Position numbers and translations under genes: made by a program. A DNA stretch of 17,123 bases. Origin: a virus. The stretch lies in UHGV virus genome UHGV-0227332; one strand, given 5' to 3'. Positions 10,068 through 14,432 of the stretch are shown here, one piece after another; the stretch's first letter is position 1, and every line of letters begins with the position of its first letter. The notes under the pieces were generated by a model. That model saw only the letters and a program-made list of their open reading frames with translations. It was not told where the DNA came from and did not search any database.

Positions 10068-10160
10068 GCACCTATAGCAGATTTGCGAGTCTGCTATGTG
10101 AGCAATGTCGCTCGTAACTAAACAGGAGCCGACTTGTTCTGATTATTGGAAATCTTCTTT

Positions 10161-10187
10161 GCCCTCCAGTGTGAGGGCAATTTTTTT
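10161..10187 (+). terminator. Intrinsic terminator inside the PL operon (tL1-like)
   Basis: GCCCTC-CAGTGT-GAGGGC hairpin followed by AATTTTTTT, immediately upstream of the RBS of the next gene. Confidence 0.55.
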
Positions 10188-10199
10188 GACGGAGGATAT

Positions 10200-11168
10200 A
10201 TGAGTGAAGTAACAGATTTAGTTGTTATTGAAAAAGCAAATGCAATGACTGTATTTCAGTCTGCCGACCAGATTGAAGAAATCCTTCAAAAGGTTGAACG
10301 TGAAGTTATGTCCTTTGTGCCTGATATCACAACGGCAAAGGGCAGAAAGGAGATCGCTTCTCTGGCGTATAAAGTTGCGCAGACGAAAACATATCTCGAT
10401 GGTCTTGGAAAAGACCTTGTTGCTGAACTGAAGGAAATTCCAAAGCTAATTGATGCCAACCGCAAGACAGTGCGTGATCGCCTTGATGAGCTGAAATCCA
10501 AGGCACGCCAGCCTCTTACTGATTATGAGGAGGAACAGGCACGGATTAAAGCCGAAGAAGAAGCTAAGGCAGCAGCTGAAGCTCTCGCAAAGCAAATTGA
10601 GTCTGACCATGAAATAGCTATTTTGATGGATCGCGAATTTGACCGCCAAAGAGAAGAGGCAAGACTCAAAGCGGAGCAGGAAAAGCGAGAGCATGAAGAA
10701 CGCTTAAAAAGAGAAGCTGAAGAGAAAGCCAGAGCAGAAGCCGAAGCAAAGGCAAAAGCCGAAATTGAAGCAGCAGCAAGGCGAGAAGCAGAAGCTAAGG
10801 CCGCAGCGGAACGTGCAGAGCGTGAACGCATTGAAGCCGAGCAACGAGCACAGCGCGAAGCAAAAGAGGCAGCAGAACGAGCTGAAAGAGAAAAGCAGGC
10901 GGCAATTGAAGCAGAACGCCGAAAAGCACAGGAGGAGGATGAACGAATCCGGCGCGAGGCTGAAGCAAAAGAGCAAGCCAGAATAGCAGAAGAAAAAAGA
11001 ATCAAGGACGAAGAAGAGCGTAGAGCAAAGGATAAAGCTCACCGGAAAGAAGTAAATAACAAAATACTTGCTGACCTTATCAAGGTTGGCGCATCAGAAG
11101 ATGTTGCTAAAAATATCATAACAGCCATCGTAAAAGGCAAAGTATTCGCAACAAAAATAACCTACTAA
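10200..11168 (+). CDS. Hypothetical protein with long Glu/Ala/Lys/Arg-rich coiled-coil region, 322 aa
   Basis: ATG 5 nt after GGAGG. A globular N-terminal segment of about 110 aa, then roughly 170 aa of EAKA/ERAE-type heptad-like repeats, then a short hydrophobic C-terminus. The ORF-track start at 10146 lies inside the terminator. Confidence 0.7.
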   Translation: MSEVTDLVVIEKANAMTVFQSADQIEEILQKVEREVMSFVPDITTAKGRKEIASLAYKVAQTKTYLDGLGKDLVAELKEIPKLIDANRKTVRDRLDELKSKARQPLTDYEEEQARIKAEEEAKAAAEALAKQIESDHEIAILMDREFDRQREEARLKAEQEKREHEERLKREAEEKARAEAEAKAKAEIEAAARREAEAKAAAERAERERIEAEQRAQREAKEAAERAEREKQAAIEAERRKAQEEDERIRREAEAKEQARIAEEKRIKDEEERRAKDKAHRKEVNNKILADLIKVGASEDVAKNIITAIVKGKVFATKITY

Positions 11169-11192
11169 TAAAACCAACATAAGGAACCACCC

Positions 11193-11324
11193 ATGATTTA
11201 CGCAATCGCGGGAGGCGCTCGCATGGGTGCCTTCCAACTAAATGAATCTTTACTTGAACGAATCACCCGTAAATTACGTGACGGATGGAAAAGAGTTGAG
11301 GTCTTATTATGCGCAATGAAATAG
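11193..11324 (+). CDS. cIII: CIII-like FtsH inhibitor, 43 aa
   Basis: MIYAIAGGARMGAFQLNESLLERITRKLRDGWKR resembles lambda CIII (MQYAIAG...ESLLERITRKLRDGWKR) from memory. AAGGA RBS. Confidence 0.75.
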   Translation: MIYAIAGGARMGAFQLNESLLERITRKLRDGWKRVEVLLCAMK

Positions 11325-11461
11325 CCGTCAATCACCAGATGCTTCGTGCTGCACAGAACAAAGCAGTAATAGCCAGATTTATTGGTGATTCCAAAATGTG
11401 GCTTGAAGCAAATAAAGCGATGAAATCAGCTATCAACCTTCCGTGGTATCGCAGGAAATGA
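11309..11461 (+). CDS. kil: Kil-like small protein, 50 aa
   Basis: ATG after GAGG, overlapping the cIII end. The IARFIGDSKMWLEANKAMK segment resembles the lambda Kil FIGDEKM region as I remember it. Position right after cIII is as in lambda. Confidence 0.5.
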   Translation: MRNEIAVNHQMLRAAQNKAVIARFIGDSKMWLEANKAMKSAINLPWYRRK

Positions 11462-11542
11462 GTTTTACAGATAACTGGTCAGACGAAGAATTCATTCGTC
11501 AGATGAACAAAATGCTCAATCAGCACAAAGAACAGGAGAAAG

Positions 11543-11854
11543 ATGATGATTCTGACTCTGAATGATAAGCGTGAAATATCGCAAATAATCGCAAGTTTTA
11601 CTGATGAAGATTACGAGCGAATCAACAGTGAAGTTGATCGTCTCTGCAAACGTTGCGACCCAATAAGCGAAATGCTTCGCTCATATAAACCAGATGAACA
11701 CACTAAGGACGCTATCGACTGGCTGGAAGATGATGACTGTAACTATCAGGAAAAAGCCGCTGAATGGTTCTGGGATGCAATAACCGAAAGAGTTAAGGCT
11801 GAATATGCCTTCGCAATATTCAAACGCAGACACATTTATGGAGAAGCAGCATGA
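11543..11854 (+). CDS. Hypothetical acidic protein, 103 aa, upstream of recT
   Basis: ATGATG start 5 nt after AGGAG. Acidic, Trp-rich C-terminal half (DWLEDDDCNYQEKAAEWFWDAITER). Its stop overlaps the recT start (ATGA). Confidence 0.6.
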   Translation: MMILTLNDKREISQIIASFTDEDYERINSEVDRLCKRCDPISEMLRSYKPDEHTKDAIDWLEDDDCNYQEKAAEWFWDAITERVKAEYAFAIFKRRHIYGEAA

Positions 11855-12753
11855 GCAATATCGTTGAATTCGTTAAACAGCAGGAGCAGTTATTCTGCGG
11901 AGCATTGACTGAACAGACGGTGACATGGGCTAAGGAAAGCCAGTTTGCAATTCAGTATTTCCAGAAAAATGATTACCTGGCTAAAACGGCACTGGCAAAT
12001 CCAACCAGTGCACAGAACGCCATCATCAATGTTGCGGCGATCGGCATCACCTTAAACCCGGCCAGCAAACTGGCTTATCTGGTTCCGCGCGACGGCATGG
12101 TTTGCCTTGATATCAGCTATATGGGATTACTTCATCTTGCGCAATCGACAGGCTCAATTAAGTGGGGGCAATGCAAACTGGTGTACTCAAACGACACCTA
12201 TGAATCAAATGGCCTTGATTCAGCACCAACTCACAAATACAACGCATTTGGAGAGCGAGGCTCTATTGTTGGTGGTTATTGCACGGTAAAAACAGCAGAT
12301 GGTGACTACCTGACTGAAGAAATGAGTCTGGCAGAAATTAAAGCAGTGGAAGCAACGAGCAAGGCAAAGAATGGACCGTGGAAAACATTCTGGGAAGAGA
12401 TGGCGCGTAAAACAATAGTTAAACGCGCCAGCAAATACTGGCCTAAAGCCCAGCGACTGGATAATGCCATTCACCTGCTTAACGAAGATGAAGGTATGCA
12501 TCAGGAACCAGTTATGCCGCACAAATCAGAGGAAGATATCCGCGAAGATGAACGGAAACGCCAGCAGGAAATAATGGATAAAGCACAACTTCTTTGCGAT
12601 GAAATGGCTCAGGCAGAAAACATGGATGATTTGAAGCGATATTTTGCAGAAGCATATCGCCTGACATCTGGAATGAAATTGCAGCAGAACGTACAAGCCA
12701 TTTACATAGAATGCAAAGCGAAACTGGAGGTTGCCAGTGAGCAAACTGTATGA
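11851..12753 (+). CDS. recT: RecT-family single-strand annealing recombinase, 300 aa
   Basis: GPWKTFWEEMARKTIVKRASKYWP closely parallels E. coli RecT (GPWVTHWEEMAKKTAIRRLFKYLP). Length and position fit a recombination module. Confidence 0.9.
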   Translation: MSNIVEFVKQQEQLFCGALTEQTVTWAKESQFAIQYFQKNDYLAKTALANPTSAQNAIINVAAIGITLNPASKLAYLVPRDGMVCLDISYMGLLHLAQSTGSIKWGQCKLVYSNDTYESNGLDSAPTHKYNAFGERGSIVGGYCTVKTADGDYLTEEMSLAEIKAVEATSKAKNGPWKTFWEEMARKTIVKRASKYWPKAQRLDNAIHLLNEDEGMHQEPVMPHKSEEDIREDERKRQQEIMDKAQLLCDEMAQAENMDDLKRYFAEAYRLTSGMKLQQNVQAIYIECKAKLEVASEQTV

Positions 12754-13219
12754 AATAGCCAATGAATACGCAAAGCTGATGGATTCAGATTTAGAGCCAG
12801 AGATGATTGCTGACACAATAGAAGGCATGGAAGGAGAATTTACCGATAAAATAGAGCAACTTCTTGCCATTATTAAAAATGAATCTGGTTATGCTGAACG
12901 CCTCAAGGACGAGGCAAAGTCACTGAATGAACGAGCAGCAGTAATTCAAAATAAGATTGATAGCATTATGGCATATATAGCCTCATCGCTTGAAATGGTT
13001 GGCAAGAAAAAGATTAGAGCAGGTATTCACCAGGTAACAATCCGCAAACCGTCAGAAACTGTAGAAATCATCGACTCAAGCGCCCTTCCTCCTGAATACG
13101 TTGAGTTTGAAACGACAATTAAAGCCGACAAGTTGGCAATCAAGCACCAACTAAAAGCAGGAATAAATATCCCAGGCGCTCAACTCAAGGTTGGGAAACC
13201 TTCACTTCTTATCAAATAA
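12737..13219 (+). CDS. Gp157-like protein, partner of RecT, 160 aa (GTG start; alternatives TTG 12731 or ATG 12779)
   Basis: GTG 7 nt after GGAGG. N-terminal motif KLYEIANEYAKLMD...LEPEMI is, from memory, typical of the siphovirus Gp157 family found beside RecT/Erf genes. Overlaps the recT end. Confidence 0.55.
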   Translation: MSKLYEIANEYAKLMDSDLEPEMIADTIEGMEGEFTDKIEQLLAIIKNESGYAERLKDEAKSLNERAAVIQNKIDSIMAYIASSLEMVGKKKIRAGIHQVTIRKPSETVEIIDSSALPPEYVEFETTIKADKLAIKHQLKAGINIPGAQLKVGKPSLLIK

Positions 13220-13230
13220 CGGTATCGACT

Positions 13231-13545
13231 ATGAAAAAGACTCCATGGGAGAAATGGGAAGTCGATTTCTTGCGCGAAGTGGCGGCGACAATGCCAGTTG
13301 AAGTTATCGCTGAAAAACTGGAAAGGACTGAAAAAGCAGTTATGGCGAAAGCAACAAGGATTGGCGCTGACATTGTTAGCCGACTTCGTGGAAGACGCTG
13401 GACAAGAGCCGAAGTATCACTTTTCGGTAAGTTCTCCGCAGAAGAAATAGCAATTGCAACCTGCCGCTCAATTTATTCAGTAAGAGCTATGCGATACAAG
13501 CTAAAAAAACTCGATGAAGAAAGAGCAGGCATACGAATAAATTAA
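13231..13545 (+). CDS. Hypothetical protein with internal tandem duplication, 104 aa
   Basis: Two repeats of about 40 aa (PWEKWEVDFLREVAATMPVEVIAEKLERTEKAVMAKATRIG and RWTRAEVSLFGKFSAEEIAIATCRSIYSVRAMRYKL). Possible helix-turn-helix-like modules. Confidence 0.55.
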   Translation: MKKTPWEKWEVDFLREVAATMPVEVIAEKLERTEKAVMAKATRIGADIVSRLRGRRWTRAEVSLFGKFSAEEIAIATCRSIYSVRAMRYKLKKLDEERAGIRIN

Positions 13546-13843: not shown

Positions 13844-14004
13844 GAGGACTTGCATACAACCCCGGCATTCTTCCGGCAGAAATGATTATTCGCCAACGCG
13901 TAAAGCTAATGCCATCGAGAGAAGAATTGCTTAAGAGAAATTCTTTTCCATCAGTGAATCAAAACAAATATCTGAATGCGATGTGGCGGAGTGGGAAGAA
14001 ATGA
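13840..14004 (+). CDS. Possible small protein, 54 aa
   Basis: ATGA-coupled at both ends (13840 and 14001-14004). Translation [54 protein letters not shown]. Confidence 0.35.
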
Positions 14005-14432
14005 AACAAATGTCACTAATTGAGATGGATGGATTTCTGAAAGGTAAATGCATCCCACGAGATTTAAAGGTTAACGAAACAAACGCTGAATATCTGGTGC
14101 GTAAATTTGCTGAAGCGGAGGCCAAGTACGCGGCGCTGGCAGCGGAGAATGCGGGGCTAAAGGCGATATGTGATGACCGTCGCAGGTTCATCATGAATGG
14201 GGTGCAGATGGGTTATATCAAGGTGCCAGCAGCGGAAACAGATCCAGACCTTGAGACAATTCGCATTGCTATATCACCACAAAAGCCCATTCCAGCCACC
14301 GATGCTTTCCTGGCTGAAGTACGGGCGCAGGGGGTAGAGATGATGCGCGAACATCCATCAATCAAACTTTGCTCTTTGACGCACATATGTGACGAGTTAG
14401 CCGCCCAGCTTCGCAAAGGAGGCAACCAGTGA
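14001..14432 (+). CDS. Hypothetical protein, 143 aa (start taken at the ATGA-coupled ATG rather than the ORF-track GTG at 13983)
   Basis: Open frame with coupled start. Its stop overlaps the GTG start of the following Ea22-like gene. Confidence 0.55.

Follow-up and report, generated by a model that had tools for sequence, protein, structure and literature searches.

A small acidic gene in the gam position of a lambdoid prophage encodes a candidate Gam-fold inhibitor of host nucleases

What is encoded between kil and recT in virus genome UHGV-0227332, at the position that gam occupies in phage lambda, and against what might its product be directed? The early genes of lambda run kil-gam-bet-exo and those of phi80 run agt-gamL-recT-exo, so that both phages place a small inhibitor gene directly before the recombination genes. 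The stretch analyzed here (17,123 nucleotides, hereafter the window) comes from a lambdoid prophage of mosaic make-up and comprises its early region; the best phage matches cover only 42-54% of the window, whose leftward early operon reads on the + strand (Table 1). The gene at issue, ORF103, is an open reading frame (ORF) of 103 codons immediately upstream of recT. The original prediction, made from the sequence alone, had described its product as an acidic, Trp-rich protein unrelated to Gam that might mimic DNA to inhibit host nucleases or restriction systems. Our analysis indicates that ORF103 probably adds to lambda Gam and phi80 GamL a third, very divergent sequence type of Gam-fold inhibitor of a host nuclease (RecBCD); the fold and the homology by themselves can be held with more confidence than fold and function taken jointly.

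Table 1. Genes of the leftward early operon surrounding ORF103 in the window.
Feature	Coordinates	Strand	Supporting matches
340-residue coiled-coil 'TolA-like' protein, phi80 Agt/Mog homolog	10146..11168 (likely start ATG 10200)	+	
cIII	11193..11324	+	Pfam Lambda_CIII 4e-15; PHROG 550
kil (FtsZ inhibitor)	11309..11461	+	Pfam Lambda_Kil 1.7e-20; PHROG 2055 4.5e-35
ORF35, small acidic 35-codon ORF	11458..11565	+	PHROG 17766 5e-16; N-terminal 20 residues match PHROG 2123 3.5e-10
ORF103, predicted all-helical acidic Gam-fold protein, candidate RecBCD/host-nuclease inhibitor	11543..11854	+	
recT (single-strand annealing protein)	11851..12753	+	Pfam RecT 2.5e-33
Sipho_Gp157 / Mu-Gam-like end-protection protein	12731..13219	+	Pfam Sipho_Gp157 1.5e-36; PHROG 253 'Mu Gam-like end protection' 3.7e-53
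D5-like regulator	after the Gp157 gene in the operon	+	

ORF103 is a real gene rather than a chance reading frame. Its product has an isoelectric point (pI) of 4.65, with 24 Asp and Glu residues against 15 Lys and Arg and a net charge of about -9, so that the acidity first ascribed to it stands; the description as Trp-rich holds only modestly, in that three of the 103 residues are Trp, some two times the typical frequency. As also noted at the outset, its TGA stop codon overlaps the recT ATG (GCATGA, 11851-11854). The frame opens with ATGATG, giving 103 codons from 11543 or 102 residues from the second ATG at 11546. A GGAG lies 7 nucleotides upstream of the second ATG as compared with 4 for the first, and it is at the second that both the alignment of the family and the largest cluster of proteins (102 residues, 1,003 member sequences) begin; this is the more likely start. 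Comparison of the DNA with phages mEpX1 and 683R2 shows seven synonymous and no non-synonymous codon changes, and comparison with SEN22 shows five synonymous and four non-synonymous ones. The gene is thus under purifying selection among close relatives, and relatives down to 24% identity retain its length, charge and position.

The family is widespread and goes without a functional annotation. A search of 5.8 billion proteins yielded 27 clusters at 90% identity, nearly all from Escherichia coli, and an exhaustive profile search of 1.84 billion representatives gave 54 matches, about 40 of them proteins of roughly 100 residues, extending to 24% identity. By tblastn the gene was found in 19 phage records, including HK140, mEpX1, Kapi1, 683R2, Louie, Gally, E212, EC.P3 and SEN22; homologs in Cronobacter phage ENT47670 and Erwinia phage Midgardsormr38 are 49% and 39% identical, respectively. 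Edwardsiella phage Edno5 was not reached by tblastn with a distant family member, and a scan of genome contigs returned one locus. Of 5,426 complete E. coli genomes, 265 (about 5%) carry an almost complete copy of the 397-nucleotide segment spanning ORF35 and ORF103 (11458-11854), always under the annotation "hypothetical protein". ORF103 matches PHROG 3486, to which no function is assigned, and searches of Pfam, NCBIfam, PADLOC and PDB sequences, with the single protein and with a profile, returned nothing significant.

The strongest plain fact about the gene is its genomic context. Across 11 informative contexts, spanning 24-100% identity, an ORF103 homolog is invariably the first gene of the recombination module, and in each of the 12 loci in which the junction was examined its stop codon shares bases with the start codon of the following gene (as ATGA or by one nucleotide). 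That next gene encodes RecT in nine of the 11 contexts (once with a small gene between) and a RecE-like nuclease in two; the original idea, which was to fall if the gene were not conserved with recT across related phages, is therefore not refuted on that count. The order ORF103-RecT-Gp157 occurs in the window, HK140, mEpX1, 683R2 and an Enterobacter prophage (52% identity), and ORF103-RecT-YqaJ exonuclease in the Cronobacter and Erwinia phages and in three metagenomic or genomic contigs (30-41% identity). One further contig ends after ORF103-RecT, and in one metagenomic phage (L011) the ORF103 homolog is followed by a 107-residue gene and then by RecT-Gp157. In SEN22 (96% identity) and contig L009 (25%) the gene precedes a RecE-like DUF3799 PD-(D/E)XK nuclease, with no RecT. 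The intervening 107-residue gene (L011 4306-4629; L012 2043-2366) is assigned to PF27050 (Phage_P22_Y8K6) in a precomputed table and has no match in a local Pfam search.

This pattern bears on whether ORF103 might act on the phage's own machinery, as an accessory factor comparable to P22 Arf/Abc1 or to a mediator that loads or regulates the annealase or nuclease. Such a role would suit a gene that always lies inside the recombination module and whose invariant stop/start overlaps suggest co-ordinated expression, and the N-terminus of the neighboring ORF35 recurs in small genes that lie in the arf position, between kil and erf. The downstream partner nevertheless varies, from RecT with Gp157 to RecT with YqaJ to a DUF3799 nuclease without RecT, a variation more in keeping with a function directed at the host than with a cofactor dedicated to RecT. 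Since the partner may be a nuclease, ORF103 is not tied to RecT as such, and we rejected the narrower proposal of a RecT-specific cofactor. T4 UvsY did appear in structure searches, among the non-significant matches (E above 3), but its template modelling (TM) scores of 0.2-0.3 amount to noise; the structural match that does stand out is Gam, not a mediator. The strong, conserved acidity of the family is likewise easier to reconcile with a DNA mimic than with a DNA-loading factor, and we consider an accessory role clearly unlikely. ORF103 itself shows no similarity, in any library searched, to P22 Abc2, Abc1 or Arf or to HK97 gp42.1, which are likewise small genes within recombination modules; Abc2 moreover acts on RecC, by a different mechanism (summarised in PMC12315714).

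Gene order singles out Gam as the protein with which ORF103 should be compared. We built alignments of lambda-type GamS (17 sequences) and phi80-type GamL (18 sequences) and aligned the ORF103 family with each. By hhalign, the family and GamS share a colinear match of 28 columns, ORF103 53-80 to GamS 56-83, with a score of 23.1 (P 1e-3), centred on LEDDDCNYQEKAAE versus AFDDDVEFQERMAE and described by the motif DDDxx[FY]QE..AE. That score was reached by none of 300 column shuffles and one of 200 block shuffles (mean 11.1, standard deviation 2.0), and the reversed alignment scored 11.3. A hidden Markov model (HMM) of the ORF103 family gave a median of 12.9 bits and a maximum of 16.2 on real Gam proteins of 95-100 residues, as against 1.3 +/- 1.8 bits on composition-matched shuffles, one of 1,880 of which reached the real median, and at most 4.4 bits on reversed sequences. 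The best HMM alignment pairs model positions 23-87 with residues 25-90 of a Gam protein (P0221; single-comparison E 6e-7), and lambda GamS itself gives a single-comparison E of 3.5e-5. These weak sequence scores are significant for a comparison specified beforehand and are far too weak for detection in a database-wide search, which explains the missing annotation. The signal was diluted to no similarity when Gam and GamL were merged into one profile, and RacC, which in the Rac prophage is encoded by the small gene preceding recE, has no similarity to ORF103. The proteins are also alike in bulk properties: members of the ORF103 family have 97-110 residues, pI values of 4.4-5.5 and net charges of -4 to -14, as compared with 97-100 residues and pI 4.6-5.0 for GamS and 90-94 residues and pI 4.4-4.9 for GamL.

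Structure prediction, which the original prediction had proposed as a check, points to the same protein. A first AlphaFold2 model built from five close sequences was mediocre (predicted local distance difference test, pLDDT, 81), and the PDB matches that Foldseek gave for it were all noise, among them T4 UvsY at E above 3. A second model, built from 37 diverse family members, was confident (pLDDT 91.1; predicted TM score, pTM, 0.79) and contains five helices, at residues 6-17, 21-35, 40-47, 54-64 and 66-102. The best match of this predicted fold is the helical GamS (PDB 2UUZ), the sole structural match to stand out. An unbiased structure search thus returned the very protein that gene order predicted, making coincidence unlikely. 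No sequence or structural similarity was found to the DNA-mimic anti-restriction proteins Ocr and ArdA, and nothing in the analysis supports the restriction-alleviation role that had been suggested.

One might still ask whether the Gam resemblance is an accident among small helical proteins, with ORF103 a conserved ORF of unrelated function or a dispensable one. The similarity does escape Pfam, NCBIfam and Foldseek; a colinear signal that exceeds both shuffled and reversed controls, the purifying selection seen among close relatives and the conservation of position, size and charge described above all argue the other way, and we regard this explanation as very doubtful. The family profile aligns colinearly with Gam proteins, and the view of ORF103 as unrelated to Gam accordingly does not hold.

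How far does the likeness to lambda Gam (PF06064) extend? Both genes occupy the same slot of the pL operon, after kil and directly 5' of the annealase gene, and the proteins share a size of about 98-103 residues and their acidity. They are colinear over the C-terminal two thirds, where the shared motif stands at the start of the last helix. The loci differ in that ORF103 lacks a long isoform in its own frame, its start being overlapped instead by the separate-frame ORF35, and in that its stop codon reaches into the start of the following gene where lambda leaves a gap of 5 nucleotides. In lambda, a GamS dimer sterically blocks RecBCD's DNA-binding site, acidic side chains of Gam replace the phosphates of the duplex on the arm of RecB, and a single long N-terminal helix plugs the 3' single-stranded DNA channel of RecB (RecBCD-Gam cryo-EM structure, PMC5218532). 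On our reading, pL would drive expression of ORF103 as the leading gene of the recombination module, with its translation coupled to that of the gene behind it. By analogy with Gam, the product of ORF103 would form an acidic helical dimer that occupies the DNA-end site of a host helicase-nuclease, most likely RecBCD, thereby protecting linear phage DNA and the substrates of RecT. Dimerization, RecBCD binding and an effect in vivo are here inferred only, from Gam. A host-nuclease inhibitor of the DNA-mimic type, as first envisaged, would nonetheless best account for a small, acidic protein encoded in the gam slot and conserved with recombination genes.

Phi80 (Lula) GamL (PF28165; 'host nuclease inhibitor GamL' at NCBI) provides a second point of reference. 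It fills the same slot, resembles ORF103 in size and charge, and precedes RecT proteins that are 57% (phi80) and 66% (HK639) identical to that of the window. The HK639 module reads kil-GamL-RecT-Gp157/Mu-Gam-like, and its Gp157 protein, gp38, is 61% identical to that of the window. These identities indicate that ORF103 replaces GamL in an orthologous module, and that the two are alternative occupants of one locus. The sequences themselves are distinct, in that the conserved N-terminus (MNAYLTYDRIE) and C-terminal CPF of GamL are missing from the ORF103 family alignment; GamL resembles Gam only in its N-terminal 26 residues, whereas ORF103 resembles it over the C-terminal two thirds. The same Cys-Pro-Phe C-terminus is common to HK97 gp42.1 and all GamL proteins, and hhalign finds no further similarity between them.

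The window also encodes, upstream of cIII, an Ala/Glu/Lys-rich protein that is 50% identical (E 1e-63) to phi80 PHI80_40, labelled in its record 'anti-toxin for Gam; Mog (modifier of Gam)' and annotated as an antidote to, or modifier of, toxic GamL. This homolog has no Pfam family, and relatives of its N-terminal domain turn up in 160 records of phages, those of Pseudomonas, Vibrio, Klebsiella and Erwinia among them, alongside many types of recombination module; the gene is not present in mEpX1 and HK140, both of which carry ORF103. Its presence in the same operon counts as suggestive support for a Gam-type function, and its link to ORF103 is only suggestive because of the variety of modules that its relatives accompany.

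A recognized anti-RecBCD candidate already lies on the other side of recT, a point that the original prediction overlooked. The Sipho_Gp157 protein encoded there also matches Phage_Mu_Gam weakly (0.0089, below the cut-off). Mu Gam and Gp157-type proteins bind DNA ends, not the enzyme, and differ from ORF103 in size and fold family. In the lambdoid modules surveyed in PMC12315714, the Mu Gam/Sipho_Gp157 family (PF07352, PF05565) belongs, as ORF103 would, to the anti-RecBCD class; ORF103 has no HMM match to it. The Gp157 reading frame of the window is listed from a TTG, and comparison with HK639 and HK140 (160 residues) suggests that GTG 12737 is the start, which leaves a 17-nucleotide overlap with the 3' end of recT. 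No recognizable exonuclease is present in the module of the window, as PMC12315714 noted for HK140.

The same survey, of a panel of 325 phages, relates anti-RecBCD genes to Chi sites and allows Gam-type and Mu-Gam-type genes to coexist. It classes HK140 as SAP-4 plus MuGam without a nuclease and SEN22 as lacking an anti-RecBCD gene, and makes no mention of the ORF103 gene; phages without an anti-RecBCD gene usually have many Chi sites and carriers have few (PMC12315714, Table 1). We found no Chi site (GCTGGTGG) on either strand of the window, nor on either strand of three phages with no recognized anti-RecBCD gene, namely ENT47670 and SEN22 over their genomes and Midgardsormr38 over the first 50,000 of its 50,485 bases. 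HK140 has four Chi sites on one strand, within late genes, and none on the other. The absence of Chi from these three carriers of ORF103 homologs fits an anti-RecBCD function that has gone unrecognized.

Several observations weigh against the assignment of ORF103 to the Gam-fold inhibitors. At standard thresholds there is no HMM match: Pfam Gam is matched neither by ORF103 at E <= 1 nor by any of 37 family members at E <= 10, NCBIfam likewise yields nothing for ORF103, and what the profile found among 1.84 billion representatives was its own family plus a few long multi-stretch proteins. No similarity to GamL emerges from hhalign (probability 0.2%) or from the ORF103 HMM (median on GamL 0.8 bits). 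Foldseek with the good model against BFVD gave one probable distant family member (E 0.04) together with noise and did not find Gam, so that the claim for the fold rests on one method. The N-terminal residues of ORF103, about 22 in number, do not align with Gam and correspond to part of the helix with which lambda Gam enters RecB. The Mu-Gam-like protein encoded right after RecT in the window and in locus L006 (with one gene between in L011) would render an anti-RecBCD ORF103 partly redundant, although HK639 pairs GamL with such a protein in the same way. Lastly, the many module types that Agt-like proteins accompany weaken the argument drawn from that gene, and the Chi comparison concerns three genomes only.

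What chiefly leaves room for a different or broader target is the unaligned N-terminus. ORF103 might retain the Gam scaffold as an acidic mimic of DNA ends, have exchanged the N-terminal 'plug' helix, and inhibit a host nuclease or defence helicase-nuclease other than, or besides, RecBCD, such as SbcCD or another end-sensing system, leaving RecBCD to the Mu-Gam-like protein. The N-terminal region, which in lambda Gam enters RecB, has no similarity in ORF103 to either Gam or GamL, and an exchanged helix with another or additional target would explain why the gene is retained beside a Mu-Gam-like end protector in the window, L006 and L011. Precedent for a wider range exists, in that phi80 GamL is annotated as an inhibitor of both RecBCD and SbcCD and lambda Gam has been reported to interact with SbcCD (PMC5218532). 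Most of the distant relatives, however, are found in RecT-plus-YqaJ modules with no other anti-RecBCD candidate and in genomes without a Chi site, where the classical Gam role is simplest, and nothing found points positively to any alternative target. We regard a switched or added target as an unlikely yet appreciable possibility; were it true, the Gam scaffold would be a modular inhibitor platform with swappable specificity. Inhibition of RecBCD by a diverged Gam-fold protein remains the reading that we favor.

Upstream of ORF103, the junction with kil carries ORF35, whose presence at 11458-11565 agrees with the first description of the locus. Its ATG overlaps the kil stop codon (ATGA), and its end overlaps the first 23 nucleotides of ORF103 in another frame. 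HK97 gp42.1, a protein of 83 residues encoded just upstream of erf, opens with the same 16 residues as ORF35 (MSFTDNWSDEEFIRQM), and the first 28 residues of ORF35 are 86% identical to a 60-residue ORF that Salmonella phage SPN9CC has in this position; a start of this type directly after kil or cIII occurs in 92 phage records. The ATGA junction is retained behind three upstream genes, namely kil in the window and cIII-like genes in mEpX1 and SEN22, and diverged relatives, recognizable at the protein level, precede ORF103 homologs in Enterobacter and Cronobacter. ORF35 is probably translated. Its coding status is less secure than that of ORF103, because the differences between close relatives, in two comparisons, comprise no synonymous and four non-synonymous changes. 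ORF35 is a variant of a widespread family of small genes (HK97 gp42.1, PHROG 17766 and PHROG 2123) at a mosaic junction, and it is not specific to ORF103, since the same family follows kil in phages with other recombination modules.

Three ORFs with the shared start were compared: that of the window, HK97 (L019) 2001-2252 and SPN9CC (L018) 2501-2680, all but the first lying between kil or cIII and erf. The sequence after the shared start differs completely from phage to phage, so that the mosaic breakpoint seems to fall inside the small gene and not at a gene boundary. Across the start of the ORF103 homolog, distant relatives encode a Kil-like peptide of 37-50 residues (…W..AM..L.R…) rather than an ORF35-like one (L005 3888-4004, L007 3889-4008, L008 152-274, L014 3894-4007 and L011 3865-4017). 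A short ORF overlapping the 5' end of the ORF103 homolog thus recurs, whatever its sequence.

Rearranged forms of the two genes were also encountered. E. coli P0025, of 69 residues, joins the N-terminus of ORF35 in frame to the last 40 or so residues of ORF103; this natural fusion apparently results from a deletion between the two GATGATGA(C/T) repeats, located at KDDD/SDSE in ORF35 and at EDDD/CNYQ in ORF103. Truncated or chimeric proteins make up several other clusters, among them P0022, in which the first 49 residues are joined to an unrelated C-terminus that contains a stretch of 11 residues also present in the product of the window ORF at 13983-14432. An Rfam search of 10900-13400 found no family, and promoter and terminator scans of the same region, including the stretch from kil to recT, found nothing above background; neither a hidden RNA nor an internal promoter is suggested.

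The function that we favor for ORF103 introduces no new principle. Antagonists of RecBCD serve in recombineering. They also potentiate quinolones, Gam lowering the ciprofloxacin MIC about four-fold (PMC5218532), and trigger or license defence systems such as Gabija (PMC12407980), and a new, sequence-distinct inhibitor would accordingly be a useful reagent and a candidate immune trigger. If our interpretation is correct, ORF103 would define a third and unannotated family of Gam-type inhibitors, carried by phages of E. coli, Salmonella, Enterobacter, Cronobacter and Erwinia, and the "hypothetical" label that its members bear everywhere, together with their absence from Pfam, NCBIfam and PHROG annotations, would mark an annotation gap. 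The classification of lambdoid recombination modules would change with it, and SEN22, which has no Chi site, would cease to be an apparent exception to the rule relating Chi sites to anti-RecBCD genes (PMC12315714).

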